From Minisyncoccia bacterium (GTDB lineage Bacteria > Patescibacteriota > Minisyncoccia > Phycocordibacterales > UBA5272): a stretch of 64,000 nucleotides of DNA. The notes under the pieces are model-generated. The model saw only the letters and a program-made list of their open reading frames with translations. It ran no database searches and was not told where the DNA came from. The translations under genes and the position numbers were made by a program. Location of the stretch: NCBI GenBank assembly GCA_038256975.1, contig JBBSJU010000003.1, forward strand, positions 4,807-68,806, written 5' to 3'. Shown one piece after another: positions 41,087 to 45,757 of this stretch (position 1 is its first letter; every line of letters begins with the position of its first letter).

Positions 41087-41158
41087 GGCCCTATCGTCTA
41101 GTGGTTAGGACAGCGGGTTCTCAATCCGTCAACCGGAGTTCGACTCTCCGTAGGGTCA
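41087..41158 (+). tRNA. tRNA-Glu (anticodon CTC), CCA not encoded
   Basis: Acceptor ggcccta/tagggtc. D-arm tcgtctagtggttaggaca, typical of Glu/Gln tRNAs. Anticodon loop ttCTCaa. T-arm cggag-ttcgact-ctccg. Discriminator A. Confidence 0.85.
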
Positions 41159-41171
41159 CACGTACAAAAAA

Positions 41172-41195
41172 CGCTGCGCAGGCAGCTATTTTTGT
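41172..41195 (+). terminator. short hairpin + T-run downstream of tRNA-Glu
   Basis: gctgc-gcag-gcagc followed by tatttttgtt. Confidence 0.35.
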
Positions 41196-41196
41196 T

Positions 41197-41244
41197 GTGT
41201 GACCCTAAGCAAGCAAACTGCTTTGCTTGCGTCGGAGAGTCGAA
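41197..41244 (-). repeat. inverted partial copy of the tRNA-Glu 3' end (T-loop through acceptor 3' strand, 22 nt) split by a 25-nt hairpin insert
   Basis: The reverse complement of 41197..41244 is ttcgactctccg + acgcaagcaaagcagtttgcttgct + tagggtcaca. The tRNA 3' end at 41139..41160 is ttcgactctccgtagggtcaca. Confidence 0.6.
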
Positions 41245-41355
41245 AAGCTTTTCCATGTTTTGAGAATCTTTGATACGATAAAACAGGAAAAGGTGTACTG
41301 CGACTGTAGGTCGAGACTCTCGTTTAATCACCATCAACAGCTAGCACCAGTAGCG

Positions 41356-41388
41356 TACAAAAACCTCCTATTTGGAGGTTTTTGTACT
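41356..41388. repeat. perfect 14-bp-stem palindrome gtacaaaaacctcc-tattt-ggaggtttttgtac upstream of gene A
   Basis: Direct inspection. Could act as a bidirectional terminator or operator. Confidence 0.55.
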
Positions 41389-41392
41389 TGTG

Positions 41393-41424
41393 AAAAAAAA
41401 TTGAAAAAGTTATATAATCTTTTT
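41393..41424 (+). promoter_or_regulatory. AT-rich promoter-like region with TATAAT hexamer ending 8 nt before the ATG of gene A (near-leaderless)
   Basis: ttgaaaaagttatataatctttttATG. A -35-like ttgtga/ttgaaa lies upstream. Confidence 0.3.
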
Positions 41425-42318
41425 ATGAAAACCATGTTTACAGACAAATTTCCCGACGACATGAAATCTAACACGGAGCTCGAAGCAGTAAAAATTAAAT
41501 ACCCTAATTATGACGACTATTACGTTGCGAGCGGATCGATAAAAGAACGTAGAGAGAGGTTCGATGAAATGTATCAAATATATGCTCCATATGCGGATAG
41601 ACATTTTCTATCAGATCTCAAAAAGCAATTTCATCAACGAACGTGGGAGATGTATATTGGATATGTTCTTGTAAAAAACAGTGTTATTTTCACCTCGACC
41701 GACAAAGGCCCAGATTTTCTTATAGAAACTCCTGGCGGAAAGATTTGGATTGAAGCAGTTGCGTGTGGTCCAGGAGAAGGACCAGATCGAGTTCCTGCAA
41801 TGGTGTATGGTGGAGTAAGTAACGTCCCTCAGGAAGAAATGATCATACGTATAGTTAGTAGTCTTGATTCAAAGTATAAAAAATTTAAAAAATACCTAGC
41901 TGACGGTATTGTGTCTCCGGAAGATAAATTGATAATTGCCGTAAACGCAGGCGGATTTTCACACATTGTTGACGGAGATATGCCACTTATTTTAAAGGCA
42001 ATTTTTGCCATTGGCCACAAAACACTGTCATGGCCTATAAATTCTGATCATAGTGTTCCTGGAAAATCAGGTGTTTCGACCAGAAATTTTATCGAGAAAA
42101 GAAATGGGAGTAAGGTGCCGACAACTTTTTTTCTTGAAGAAGACCATAAAATAATCAGTGCCATAATGTATTGCAGTAAAAACATACTGAATCATGAAAA
42201 TCCCCCTGGGATAGATATTTCAGTTGTGAGAAACTACATCGCTACCAATTCACTCCCAGAAACTGAGTTTCCGTTTATGGATTATATTAGTACAAAAAAC
42301 GGAGAAATTCTAATATAG
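41425..42318 (+). CDS. hypothetical protein (islet gene A), possible PD-(D/E)xK-like nuclease fold
   Basis: 297 aa from ATG 41425 (MKTMFTDKF...). The track ORF starts at 41227 but would span the palindrome and tRNA fragment. GPDFLIETPGGKIWIEAVA is weakly reminiscent of a D...ExK motif. No confident family. Confidence 0.5.
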   Translation: MKTMFTDKFPDDMKSNTELEAVKIKYPNYDDYYVASGSIKERRERFDEMYQIYAPYADRHFLSDLKKQFHQRTWEMYIGYVLVKNSVIFTSTDKGPDFLIETPGGKIWIEAVACGPGEGPDRVPAMVYGGVSNVPQEEMIIRIVSSLDSKYKKFKKYLADGIVSPEDKLIIAVNAGGFSHIVDGDMPLILKAIFAIGHKTLSWPINSDHSVPGKSGVSTRNFIEKRNGSKVPTTFFLEEDHKIISAIMYCSKNILNHENPPGIDISVVRNYIATNSLPETEFPFMDYISTKNGEILI

Positions 42319-42322
42319 TACA

Positions 42323-43450
42323 TTATTGAGGTTGCTTATCTTTCAAAAAGTTTAATAGGCAGTGACGAACAAGCGATTCAAAGAAATGGGCGAATGGTAA
42401 TTTTTGCGAACCAGAAAATGATCTATTGTCGATAGTCATACCCATACTTGGATCGGTATCCCAAGTCCTAGCCTCTTTCATTCTTAGTGGCATACTCAAG
42501 TACATTGATTCGCCACTATGGAGATACGCAGATCTGGCACTATATATGGTTTTTAGTGTCGGAACTAAGGCATCTTTTCTTATTTTACAATGTTCGGCTC
42601 TAGATTTTCCGCCTTTAAAAAATCTTGTGCAATATTTTTTAATAAAGGAAACAAAACGTAACTTAGAATTCCTGACAGAAAAAATCTCCTTCAATTTATC
42701 CTGTTGTTCTTTTGACAAACTAGTGACATCCACGATTTCGTGTATTTCCCTTGCACTAAAAATATCCACTGAAGAATCCATATCTATATACTTACTTAAA
42801 ATTTCTACGGCCGAAACAAGTCGAATGAATACCATTTCGGTGTCTAGACTAACTTGTCTCAAGGATTGTAAATATTGAAATGATGCCCATAAGAAATCTT
42901 GATGGAACTCCGTGGGTAGAGATCTGATCTTGTCTAAAAATTCAACAAGCCCAACACTAAAACTACGGGTCTTGTCTGAAAAAATAGTCGGATGAATCCC
43001 ACCTTCTGTACGCCTGTATTTTAAATATCTTTCGGATCGATGTTTTTGTCCATTTGAAAAAATGGTACTAGTCGCAACGATATAAAATCTGCATTGAAAA
43101 TATAAAGAGAATAAAGATATAAATTCTTCTGCCACCCCCTCCTTAAAATAGTAACCGCTTTTGTGGACATCTAGGTAACGCGAGTCGTTCTGTTCTCCAT
43201 GTGTGGCAGACTTTATTCGGAGAAGATATTTATATAAACCATTTTCATCTTTTTCAAAAGTTAAAAATGAACATGAAATTAACCCTTTCTCGTAATCAAG
43301 CCCGCCGGTTATACGGCATTCAGTGGCAATTTCATATTCTTCAAAATACTGATCTTTCTTTTTTCTAAATTTAACACAGTCAATATGCCTGACCCAGGAC
43401 ATTCTATTGTCTAGTTTTCTTCTGACTATGGACATATCTAAATAGTACAC
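42323..43450 (-). CDS. hypothetical protein (islet gene B) with C-terminal Rx4H HEPN-like motif; candidate abortive-infection/defence RNase
   Basis: 375 aa. C-terminal TIYSARSAYLHSGE matches the R-x4-H HEPN motif. Convergent with gene A, stops 4 nt apart. Confidence 0.45.
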   Translation of the reverse strand: MYYLDMSIVRRKLDNRMSWVRHIDCVKFRKKKDQYFEEYEIATECRITGGLDYEKGLISCSFLTFEKDENGLYKYLLRIKSATHGEQNDSRYLDVHKSGYYFKEGVAEEFISLFSLYFQCRFYIVATSTIFSNGQKHRSERYLKYRRTEGGIHPTIFSDKTRSFSVGLVEFLDKIRSLPTEFHQDFLWASFQYLQSLRQVSLDTEMVFIRLVSAVEILSKYIDMDSSVDIFSAREIHEIVDVTSLSKEQQDKLKEIFSVRNSKLRFVSFIKKYCTRFFKGGKSRAEHCKIRKDALVPTLKTIYSARSAYLHSGESMYLSMPLRMKEARTWDTDPSMGMTIDNRSFSGSQKLPFAHFFESLVRHCLLNFLKDKQPQ

Positions 43451-43508
43451 TCCCCCTCCCTAAACCCCAAAAGCCCCCAACACGGCCTTCCCCCCAAAGA
43501 TACATACC

Positions 43509-43582
43509 CAAATAAAAAACCCACCAAATTTGGTGAGCATTCTTGGTCTAAGGTGACATGGAGTCACCTTAGACCACTTTTT
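43509..43582 (-). terminator. tandem-hairpin terminator downstream of islet gene C
   Basis: 13-bp perfect stem ggtctaaggtgac-atgga-gtcaccttagacc. Second hairpin caccaaatttggtg. On the minus strand a gggttttttatttggg T-run follows. Confidence 0.55.
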
Positions 43583-43590
43583 CGGCAAGC

Positions 43591-44181
43591 CTAGCGCTTA
43601 CCCTTCTTGCCGCTGCCTGCACTCGCACCTTTACGAGCCTGGCATTCGCCATTCCTAGCAGCATGGTTCGCCCAGCGACGACTCTCGACACCGGCTGCTT
43701 TTGCACGGGCGGTTTTGCCCGTCGAGGCGCGTTGTTTCAGCTTGAGCCAGGCGGGAACGTCCATACTTCGCGGCAGAGACTTCGGCTGGAGGTCGTTGAA
43801 ATAAACCGACCAGCCATTTTTGTTCTCGAACGTACAGTTGACCAGCTCCTGTTCCGGACTACCGAAGAATCGGTAGGAGAACGCTCCGGGTTGCAAAAGC
43901 ATATTTTCGATGCCGGCAGCGGCAACCATCTTACTTGCTTTCGCGAGCAGCCAGGTTGCCCCGATTGCCCGGATGTCGGAGACCTTGAGGAGAAAAGCGT
44001 TCCCCTTGCCGGTAAACTCACGACCCGTGTCGTGAGCAAAAGTTGCGTTCACGAGGAATGACCCTGATGACTGAATGATTCCCCGATCATTCAGTCGCAC
44101 CAGAGTCATTCGAGGATCGTTGACCAGATCATCGAATGAGATCCATGTGCTATGCTTTGTCACAACGTTCATGTTGTTCAT
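43591..44181 (-). CDS. hypothetical protein (islet gene C), 54% GC, with Lys/Arg/Ala-rich basic C-terminal tail
   Basis: Start at ATG 44181, preceded by strong SD AGGAGA with a 5-nt spacer (MNNMNVVTKH...). The track ORF extends to 44220. GC is ~17 points above the genome background. The C-terminal 45 aa are highly basic (KQRASTGKTARAKAAG...KGASAGSGKKGKR). Confidence 0.5.
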   Translation of the reverse strand: MNNMNVVTKHSTWISFDDLVNDPRMTLVRLNDRGIIQSSGSFLVNATFAHDTGREFTGKGNAFLLKVSDIRAIGATWLLAKASKMVAAAGIENMLLQPGAFSYRFFGSPEQELVNCTFENKNGWSVYFNDLQPKSLPRSMDVPAWLKLKQRASTGKTARAKAAGVESRRWANHAARNGECQARKGASAGSGKKGKR

Positions 44182-44376
44182 GGTTGTCTCCTGATAGCTC
44201 CATCGAACCCTTATCCCCATGAAGGAAAGGTGGAGGGGTCCTTGACCCAGATTGGAAGTTTAGTCCGACCGTTCGAAAGTCTTTATGGACAAACTTGGGA
44301 AATATTTCCCGAAAAATATCTAAATAATTAGTTTTTAGGTTCTTTTCAGGAAACATTTCCTTTCAAAGATCAGGCT

Positions 44377-44418
44377 GTATACTAATACCAGTATACTATA
44401 TATACATAATTTTGTCAA
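44377..44418 (-). promoter_or_regulatory. consensus sigma70 promoter TTGACA-17-TATACT with palindromic operator overlapping the -10/TSS, driving islet gene C
   Basis: Minus strand reads ttgacaaaattatgtatatatagtatactggtattagtatac. The palindrome gtatact-aatacc-agtatac (44377..44396) overlaps the -10 box. A ~200-nt 5' UTR follows. Confidence 0.5.
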
Positions 44419-44446
44419 GTATAGCCTCCCTTGTATTAATAGGACG

Positions 44447-45757
44447 TTACCTCCCCCTCCACTCCTCGTTCTGCCGTACCAAAAGTTCATCTTTCATTTC
44501 TGGATATCGCAAGAGTTCTTCTGTAGCACGTTCCATACGAATACCTTGAGAGGCTTTGAGAAGCACTACGTCCCCTTCTTCTAGTAAACTCTCAGCAAAT
44601 TTTCCTGCACTACGCGAATCTTCAAACTGAAAAATATTATCCTCGTGCATACCATCATTAAGCGCACCTTCGACAATAAAGCGTGCTCGCATACCAACAG
44701 TAATAAGCTTGTGTGCTGCCTGGCTTGCGTCTTTGCCGATTTCTTTATGTACTCGTTCAGTATGTTTACCAAGCTCAAGCATGTCACCTAAAATTGCTAT
44801 TTTCTTTCCTCGGACTTCGATTTCCCGCAGAGTCTCGAGAGCGTGCTTCATAGCTTTGGGAGCAGCGTTGTAAGTGTCATCAAGAAGAATTGCGCCCTTC
44901 ACACCATCTAAGATCCGCATTCGCCCAGATTCTGGCGTGTATTCTGAAAGTGCGTTATCAAGAAGCGTGAGATCAACATCAAGCACTTGGGCAACAGCAC
45001 CCGCAGCGGCGCCTGCAGCAGCGTACACACGACCTAGATAGCCTTTGCGCTCAATATGCACCACTTTTCCATCCTGAGTGTGGAGCTCATACTGCATACC
45101 TGAAATATCTTTCTTTGTTTCGTCTTTTTTGTCGTACAAATATGAGTCGTTATGAATCGAAACGGTATTGTCTGCATTAAAGCCGAAAGTAACTTTTGTG
45201 TGCGTAATGTCTTCGGCAATTTTTGTTGCATCAGCATCATCGCCACAATATACAAAGACGCCGTCTTTTTTCAATGCTTGTGGCAGAAAAGCTTTTTCTT
45301 TGATTATAAGGTCGCGATTGTTTTGGAAATTTTCTATGTGTACTGGAGTCTCACCAAACTGAGTAAGTACCGCAATGTTTGGCTTGAGCCATTTTGTGAG
45401 TGTTTCGATATCACCGGGTGCGTCGGCACCAACTTCAAGCACCAGCCACGTGGGGTATTCCTCACGAACAATGAGACGGAGCGTACTTCGCACAAGAAGT
45501 GCAAGCCAGCCAAACGGATTACTCCACTGATTGTCTTCACCTAAGATAGTCAGCGGTACTCCTATTTCACTGTTAAAACTTTTGTAGCTTTTGCGGGCAG
45601 AATATGTGGTGGCGATGGCGGCAAAGATTGCATCTTTACTTGAAGTCTTACCAATATTTCCGGTGACAGCGATAATTTTTGGCTTATAGGCCTTAAGTGT
45701 TGCCTGAGCAAGGACGCGCAACAAGAATACAACGACGGGCTTAAAAAATGATTGCAT
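44447..45757 (-). CDS. murF: UDP-N-acetylmuramoyl-tripeptide--D-alanyl-D-alanine ligase
   Basis: IIAVTGNIGKTSSKD P-loop. Mur ligase domains. C-terminal LLKASQGIRMERATEEL is MurF-like. Confidence 0.85.
   Translation of the reverse strand: MQSFFKPVVVFLLRVLAQATLKAYKPKIIAVTGNIGKTSSKDAIFAAIATTYSARKSYKSFNSEIGVPLTILGEDNQWSNPFGWLALLVRSTLRLIVREEYPTWLVLEVGADAPGDIETLTKWLKPNIAVLTQFGETPVHIENFQNNRDLIIKEKAFLPQALKKDGVFVYCGDDADATKIAEDITHTKVTFGFNADNTVSIHNDSYLYDKKDETKKDISGMQYELHTQDGKVVHIERKGYLGRVYAAAGAAAGAVAQVLDVDLTLLDNALSEYTPESGRMRILDGVKGAILLDDTYNAAPKAMKHALETLREIEVRGKKIAILGDMLELGKHTERVHKEIGKDASQAAHKLITVGMRARFIVEGALNDGMHEDNIFQFEDSRSAGKFAESLLEEGDVVLLKASQGIRMERATEELLRYPEMKDELLVRQNEEWRGR

Follow-up and report, generated by a model that had tools for sequence, protein, structure and literature searches.

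The DNA analyzed here is a 64,000-nt stretch of a Minisyncoccia bacterium contig (hereafter the window), and our subject is the segment of it that separates a tRNA-Glu gene from murF, the last gene of the dcw cluster. A previous reading based on the letters of this DNA only (the sequence-only reading) had described the segment as a tRNA-linked accessory islet with three genes without a housekeeping assignment, which we call A, B, and C. Its tRNA-Glu, its three open reading frames (ORFs), the GC-rich gene, the terminators, and the TTGACA-17-TATACT promoter all lie where it had placed them (Table 1). According to their domains, the flanking genes code for FecR and a CHASE2 adenylate/guanylate cyclase, and for a Mur ligase, a penicillin-binding protein (PBP) transpeptidase, and RsmH. 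Gene A is located on the + strand and converges with gene B, with 4 nt between the stop codons; both B and C are on the - strand. The ORF of gene A spans positions 41227-42318 (+), with the true start at the ATG at 41425, which gives a protein of 297 aa identical to database protein P0001. For gene B (ORF 42323-43450, -), translation probably starts at M17 (43402), the position from which the family can be aligned; both M17 and W19 are invariant, and a start there gives 359 aa, the length of the database protein. Gene C (ORF 43591-44220, -) likely starts at the ATG at 44181, with an AGGAGA ribosome-binding site five bases before it. Its promoter matches 11 of 12 consensus positions, and the perfect palindrome that had been described over it, GTATACT / AGTATAC (44377-44383 and 44390-44396), is indeed there, with 7-bp arms, a 6-nt spacer, and an extent (44377-44396) that overlaps the -10 hexamer and the likely transcription start of the cassette. 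Likewise, the strong terminators described in the segment correspond to hairpins at 43544-43576, 43519-43538, 41173-41186, and 41355-41387.

Table 1. Features of the segment between tRNA-Glu and murF, in window coordinates.
Feature	Position	Strand	Basis or remark
tRNA-Glu, anticodon CUC	41087-41159	+	ARAGORN; Rfam tRNA, 58.3 bits; intact, conserved flank of the slot
Hairpin in the tRNA trailer, bidirectional, terminator-like	41173-41186	.	Hairpin scan; equivalent trailer hairpin in relatives
Inverted copy of the last 23 nt of tRNA-Glu (11 + 12 nt)	41198-41244	+	Inverted-repeat scan
Block common with L006, ending in GCTAGCAC at the cargo junction	41256-41347	+	blastn, 82% to L006; alignments
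Cassette A: hairpin 41355-41387, promoter GTGAAA-17-TATAAT 41390-41418, coding sequence 41425-42318	41340-42319	+	
Gene B, 359-aa HEPN-domain protein	42323-43402, ORF to 43450	-	
G-tract-rich spacer, from the terminator of C to the start of B	43451-43495	-	Read from the sequence
3' end of cassette C: hairpin 43544-43576 (14 bp) and T-run terminator 43538-43519	43519-43576	-	
Gene C, 196 aa, GC-rich, basic C-terminal helix, orphan family	43591-44181 (ORF to 44220)	-	
Structured 5' leader of gene C, ~200 nt	44182-44383	-	
Promoter of cassette C: -35 TTGACA 44418-44413, -10 TATACT 44395-44390	44377-44418	-	
murF, last gene of the dcw cluster, conserved flank of the slot	44447-45757	-	Pfam Mur_ligase_M, Mur_ligase_C

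A MurF search with one genome per species retrieved two relatives, a Candidatus Paceibacterota metagenome-assembled genome (MAG) with 95% amino acid identity in MurF (L006) and a Paceibacteria MAG with 83% (L007). Two short metagenomic contigs, L004 and L005, were found via gene C; both begin with the 3' end of murF and L005 ends in tRNA-Glu, a gene that is also kept in L006 and L007. The flanks are common to all five loci, and the cargo differs in each: C, B, and A in the window; only one 494-aa AAA_15 ATPase, matched by the PtuA, GajA, and AriA models (down to 6e-21), in L006; a 696-aa cytochrome-b5 and cytochrome-d1 protein in L007; a VTT-domain protein, a 343-aa ORF, C, and a 369-aa ORF in L005; and C followed by unrelated AT-rich DNA in L004. 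As the five loci share their flanks and not their cargo, the interval from murF to tRNA-Glu is a hypervariable slot. The impression that the segment is accessory was therefore correct, with four related loci (L004-L007) holding other cargo at murF/tRNA-Glu and no relative carrying A, B, and C together. By type, and in this small sample of five loci, A, B, and the ATPase of L006 are defence-type cargo, and the cytochrome-d1 protein of L007 and the VTT protein of L005 are not. The variable part starts near position 41348 and not at the tRNA. The block before it is shared with L006 (12960-13051 in that genome), which is without A, B, and C, and in both genomes the cargo gene follows it directly. 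Over one run of 44 nt, TGTTTTGAGAATCTTTGATACGATAAAACAGGAAAAGGTGTACT, the two copies are identical, a higher conservation than that of murF (87% nucleotide identity). The block may serve as a promoter, or encode a small RNA, directed into the slot. We considered GCTAGCAC as a recurring motif of cassette junctions and rejected it, since its one occurrence in the window is what chance predicts.

Two of the cargo genes in relatives deserve mention on their own account. The L007 gene (6947-9037) codes for a membrane-anchored protein of 696 aa with a cytochrome-b5 domain and a cytochrome-d1 (nitrite-reductase-like) beta-propeller (Pfam, 3.9e-71), a redox gene that is unexpected for a genome of the candidate phyla radiation (CPR). 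The 369-aa neighbour of C in L005 (2964-4073, -) has no Pfam or PADLOC match at E <= 0.01, and it contains a DGFQR motif that we presume to recall DGQHR/ParB-like (DndB-type) domains. Compared with what is generally known of defence hotspots and tRNA-linked islets, the slot is alike in that the same flanks enclose a different cargo in each relative; it differs in being without an integrase, direct repeats, or a mobile-element backbone, in its size of 1.6-3.3 kb, in the reduced genome of its CPR host, and in that one relative holds a redox enzyme instead. As a whole, the islet is probably an ordinary variable defence-type hotspot with one unexplained cassette. The stretch ~41348-44446 is a hypervariable cargo slot anchored by murF, at the end of the dcw cluster, and by the tRNA-Glu/FecR side, and its turnover would most likely proceed via recombination between the conserved flanks rather than through an integrase acting at the tRNA.

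The three genes of the window do not travel together. In a tblastn survey of 15 related loci, in which homologues of A were found at L001-L003, of B at L012-L015, and of C at L004, L005, and L008-L011, a second member of the trio was absent at every locus retrieved. Cassette A, its hairpin and promoter included, is found again, with 81% nucleotide identity, at another locus in a second CPR genome (L001), where it adjoins a 733-aa AAA_13 protein that is the PADLOC candidate PDC-S46 (4e-228), and a 70%-identical copy adjoins a large serine recombinase, an HNH protein, and a DUF3800 protein. A 51%-identical homologue of B is part of a cluster of an HTH protein, an N6/N4 methyltransferase, RE_BsaWI, B, and a methyltransferase, adjoined by GmrSD and a serine recombinase. 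The borders of cassette C (~43504-44420) were set by homology to L004 and L005, and between B and C there are two hairpins, one of them followed by a T-run. This lack of co-occurrence, the own borders, the opposite strands, and the separate signals identify A, B, and C as three independent cassettes. Each would be a single-gene unit with its own promoter and terminator; the consensus promoter that had been taken to close the islet is gene C's own and travels with cassette C. Separately, we observed an exact 12-nt direct repeat, GTACAAAAAACG, that brackets gene A, with one copy in the tRNA trailer (41162-41173) and the other in the last codons of A (42290-42301), and a resemblance between the hairpin upstream of A (41355-41387) and that of the tRNA trailer; both may be due to chance among terminators made of A/T runs.

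Gene A, which had been suggested to be possibly PD-(D/E)xK-like, matched the PADLOC models PD-T7-1 (1.3e-14) and PD-T7-5 (3.2e-13), as well as phrog_8571 of PHROGs (3e-24); it had no match in Pfam or NCBIfam. Both PADLOC models were also matched by all of the aligned relatives of A (33/33), with a best E of 8e-25. Residues E75, D97 (after P96), E110, and K150 are invariant or nearly so. PD-T7-1 was recovered as a single-gene anti-phage system by functional selection from the E. coli pangenome (Vassallo et al., 2022; PMC9519451), in a text where PD-T7-5 is not named, and PD-T7-1 and PD-T7-5 have been tabulated as PD-(D/E)xK nuclease systems from the E. coli selection study, with the mechanism entered as 'N/A' (PMC10952713). 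Gene A resembles them in that it stands alone, in defence islands, beside recombinases, and on plasmids (its distant homologues are found on Acinetobacter, Providencia, and rhizobial plasmids), and in that the acidic residues E75, D97, and E110 would be compatible with a PD-(D/E)xK core. It differs from PD-T7-1 in being without the ~140-residue N-terminal part of the model, and from both in its CPR host and in having no lysine at the E-x-K position. A tblastn search of phages with A found nothing, single-sequence and profile searches of the PDB with A, B, and C were equally negative, and the contig index contained no exact match to the A or B protein of the window. Judged by its sequence, gene A adds a remote member to a defence family that had been described before, and it would act as a stand-alone nuclease-based defence. 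The claim that the defence cargo is undescribed thus fails for A, whose family was already known.

Gene B has 130 homologues and no annotated domain in the region they share. R306, S307, Y309, L310, H311, and G313 are invariant in 50 homologues, and R306 and H311 constitute the R-x4-H motif that the sequence-only reading had seen in this protein. The AlphaFold model (predicted local distance difference test, pLDDT, 90; predicted TM-score, pTM, 0.90) consists of an N-terminal alpha/beta domain and a C-terminal helical domain, the latter superposing on HEPN domains that include AbiV, Csm6, a HEPN toxin, and LsoA. The protein has both of the features that define the HEPN superfamily, the R-x4-6-H motif and the all-alpha HEPN fold, and motif, alignment, and predicted structure agree with the initial assignment to Rx4H HEPN-like proteins. 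Searches with B itself gave no match in Pfam, NCBIfam, PHROGs, or PADLOC, the HEPN_Apea and ApeA models did not appear at E <= 1, and tblastn against plasmids found nothing; profile searches with the relatives gave faint HEPN_Apea, AbiU, and Cas13-ApeA traces in 1 of 50 each (Apea E 0.0017). Gene B is therefore a HEPN protein of an uncharacterised family. It resembles HEPN abortive-infection effectors of the ApeA, AbiV, AbiU, and PD-T7-3 type in its invariant R-x4-H within a helical C-terminal domain, in its N-terminal non-catalytic domain, in being a solitary gene, and in having a homologue in a restriction-modification/defence neighbourhood; it differs from them in that no Pfam or PADLOC model fits it and in that some of its relatives carry an AIG2/GGACT domain. 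This architecture and these neighbourhoods suggest an RNase-type abortive-infection effector, in which the N-terminal domain would act as a sensor and control the C-terminal R-x4-H RNase. About a dozen members of the family (P0099, P0105, P0107, P0121, and others) have a C-terminal gamma-glutamylcyclotransferase (AIG2_2/GGACT) after residue ~364, and a full-text literature search combining HEPN, gamma-glutamylcyclotransferase, and defence found nothing relevant. In front of gene B, on the same strand, the spacer 43451-43495 contains the tracts GGGGGG, GGGGG, GGGG, GGG, and GGGGG, unusual for a genome of 40% GC; they might fold into a G-quadruplex, either as DNA or within the 5' untranslated region of gene B.

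Cassette C is the only element here without a close precedent. Five relatives of gene C (P0166-P0170) are known among ~15 billion proteins, only two of them close among 5.8 billion clusters, and an exhaustive HMMER search over 1.84 billion representatives added only two remote ones, with 35% and 29% identity. Nothing was found for the protein in Pfam, NCBIfam, PHROGs, or PADLOC, nor for the cassette by blastn against phage and plasmid collections. The differences between copies fall on codon positions 1/2/3 as 14/13/57 and 22/28/85, and the ratio of non-synonymous to synonymous substitution rates (dN/dS) is 0.12; by this pattern gene C is coding and constrained. We had also considered a GC-rich non-coding RNA of the GOLLD/ROOL type, which we discarded given the lack of an Rfam match and the clearly codon-based substitutions. 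The AlphaFold (AF2) model (pLDDT 77, pTM 0.60) combines a core of beta-sheet and helices with a long C-terminal helix that is basic, in agreement with the basic C-terminal tail described earlier, and structure searches with it gave no fold match; the motifs LPxxMxVPxW and GKTAR are invariant. Among the signals of the cassette, the -35 hexamer and the spacing are conserved in L004, L005, L008, and L011, and the 14-bp hairpin at 43544-43576 shows compensatory changes in L004 and L005. All three copies carry ORFs of 132-172 codons antisense to C (window 43663-44061, +; L004 482-949, -; L005 2305-2823, -), an expected feature of DNA rich in GC, and the sense frame fits the pattern of substitutions better. 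In L011, ~200 nt downstream of P0170, we also noticed a type III hammerhead ribozyme (1276-1330, +; 44.6 bits against a gathering threshold of 48.5, E 2.4e-7) with a complete CUGAUGA...GAAAC core, behind which come another AT-rich stretch resembling a promoter and then the beginning of a second GC-rich ORF.

Upstream of gene C, the leader is far more conserved than the coding sequence. Over the 193 nt that precede the Shine-Dalgarno sequence (SD), the three loci differ by 4.7-9.8%, against 40-59% at synonymous sites, and column identity is 96%. RNAalifold predicted a five-helix fold with three compensatory pairs, closed by helix P1 (CCUGAU with AUCAGG; 44374-44369 with 44195-44190), which overlaps the SD (44192-44187); P2 is a 19-bp hairpin (44360-44298) with three G-U pairs, and three more hairpins follow. 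The leader of L011 (~260 nt) has a folding z-score of -7.6, the same long hairpin, and the SD and AUG paired to the 5' leader. A covariance model (R1) built from the three close leaders only recovers that of L011 over its full length (21.6 bits, E 2.8e-4 in 165 kb), so that the leader recurs even though the C protein of L011 is only 29% identical. In the fitted alignment 42 of 62 pairs are kept in L011, 15 of them with both sides changed, figures to be read knowing that this alignment is biased towards the model. Against Rfam 15 (4227 families, E <= 1) the leader gave only chance-level microRNA matches on P2 (E 0.37-0.4, ~24 bits against a gathering threshold of 90). Two degenerate leader patterns run over IMG/VR and JGI metagenome contigs gave 0 and then 7 matches; as all 7 failed the covariance model, we attribute them to chance. 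The C leader resembles translational riboswitches, autoregulatory mRNA leaders, and fold-back-inhibited toxin mRNAs in its predicted multi-helix junction, whose closing helix lies over the ribosome-binding site, in following a strong promoter, and in being far more conserved than the coding sequence. It differs from them in having no Rfam match, antisense RNA, or tandem repeat array, and in that C is a 196-aa soluble basic protein and not a small hydrophobic toxin. We dismissed a ToxIN-like (type III toxin-antitoxin) array for lack of such repeats.

The near-consensus sigma-70-type promoter would thus drive gene C strongly, through a folded leader of ~200 nt, and translation would be gated at the RNA level by the closing helix over the SD, as the predicted folds suggest. 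A fuller picture, which we consider speculative and unlikely, is that cassette C is a self-contained RNA-gated module in which a new class of leader keeps the ribosome-binding site closed until a trigger (a ligand, RNA processing, or infection) arrives, the protein, of novel fold, is an effector of defence, addiction, or anti-defence, and the GC content is selected, for example as an escape from A/U-preferring RNases like the HEPN protein next door. Alternatively, the region upstream of C could act as DNA, as an operator array or recombination site, or code for a leader peptide, instead of working as a structured RNA. Long inverted repeats can be protein-binding sites, and the palindrome over the -10 hexamer would suit such a role. 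Nevertheless, the three G-U pairs of P2 form only in the sense-strand RNA, the changes in L004 and L005 convert G-U to G-C and A-U to G-C, and the antisense strand scores far lower against the covariance model. As for a leader peptide, an ORF starting with MFP does begin inside P2 in the window and in L011, but its ends differ (68, 33, and 31 codons), the changes are mostly non-synonymous, only MFP is common with L011, and the presumed SD abuts the AUG; we rejected this peptide on the variable length and the type of changes. A non-RNA role of the region is consequently unlikely, and we keep the interpretation as a folded leader.

The tRNA end of the segment invites another explanation, namely that the segment is the remnant of an integrase-mediated element inserted in the 3' end of tRNA-Glu, with an attachment (att) scar left behind; the sequence-only reading had described a tRNA 3'-end scar at the start of the segment. 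A copy of the tRNA end does exist: the last 23 nt recur ~40 nt downstream, inverted, at 41198-41208 and 41233-41244, split by a 25-nt hairpin. The segment adjoins the tRNA, and an exact 12-mer at one of ~300 positions would be expected by chance only ~2e-5 times. However, integration gives direct repeats and this copy is inverted, there is no second copy on the murF side, and no ORF between 41.0 and 44.5 kb is an integrase or recombinase. Moreover, the copy lies outside the variable segment, since 41256-41347 is common with L006, and the relatives vary in cargo without any such scar: the inverted copy is absent from L005, L006, and L007, where the trailer forms just a short hairpin that includes the final GTCAC of the tRNA. 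Neither of the marks of a tRNA-integrated island, an integrase/recombinase domain in the ORFs of the segment and a direct repeat of the tRNA, was found. The copy, being inverted, genome-specific, outside the variable segment, and unaccompanied by an integrase, is not an att scar and does not mark integration, and we judge an origin of the segment by integration quite improbable. The copy may instead be a hairpin extended by template switching. A transcript reading through the trailer terminator would fold to a hairpin of -79.7 kcal/mol (z = -8.3) that competes with the cloverleaf.

Composition offers a third explanation, in which gene C came recently from a donor of high GC or results from a chimeric assembly, and the conservation of its leader only reflects recency. 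Gene C has 54.7% GC and a GC content at third codon positions (GC3) of 0.62, against 0.31-0.39 in the neighbouring genes, and it is the only place above 50% GC among the 600-nt windows of the 64 kb (mean 0.402, sd 0.029); a GC of 0.55 against 0.40 around it (z ~5) and the location of one remote homologue in a contig of 68% GC would fit such an event. Yet three independent assemblies put C in the murF/tRNA-Glu slot, and the three close copies, separated by 0.56-1.15 synonymous substitutions per site (dS), all have a GC3 of 0.61-0.67 in AT-rich surroundings, a composition that is maintained and not decaying. In the remote homologues the coding GC is 65-76% (L011) and 53-61% (L008), with AT-rich near-consensus promoters in front. 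Furthermore, the gap between leader and synonymous divergence cannot come from recency, and no donor lineage appeared among the 1.84 billion representative proteins. Thus, the description of C as a gene of foreign GC was right about the richness in GC and wrong in taking it as evidence of recent acquisition: held over this divergence and shared by the remote homologues, it is a maintained trait of the family, and a recent transfer is very improbable. Least credible of all is the proposal of one undescribed three-gene module, a three-component defence, abortive-infection, or addiction system, for even though the genes are adjacent, A and B converge closely, and two of the three have defence-type domains, none of the loci of A, B, or C has a second member, the genes lie on opposite strands with their own promoters and terminators, the cassette borders are separate, and the conserved co-occurrence and co-orientation typical of multi-gene defence or toxin-antitoxin operons were not found over the 15 loci.

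Taken together, we assign a probability of about 0.7 to the reading that the slot holds three independent cassettes, A and B of defence type and C with a folded leader. Several observations weigh against it. The L007 slot carries a non-defence gene, so the slot is not exclusively dedicated to defence. Gene A has no canonical E-x-K lysine beside E110, although K150 or R142 might substitute, and its alignment with the PD-T7-1 and PD-T7-5 models is limited to their core (residues 48-253 of A). Regarding the leader, a third C lineage (L008) has a short one without significant structure (z = -0.04), which also made us reject a pairing of the 5' end with the SD as conserved in that lineage; in the window, P1 takes in just half of the SD (3 of 6 bases), and occlusion rests on predicted folds; and since only four leader sequences exist, the covariation statistics are weak. 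Finally, the CPR hosts are uncultured.

The genomes of CPR/Patescibacteria are tiny, and none of those compared here comes from culture. Next to essential cell-division genes, even a genome of this kind seems to maintain a slot that is dedicated to defence-type genes and rapidly exchanged, and the slot between murF and tRNA-Glu is a defined anchor for surveys of accessory cargo in Paceibacteria MAGs. Through its contents, the known range of the PD-T7-1/5 family, and that of a large HEPN family without annotation (130 homologues), now includes the CPR. The leader of cassette C is a concrete candidate for a new cis-regulatory RNA, and gene C itself, held GC-rich in AT-rich genomes across a long divergence, poses a compositional puzzle.

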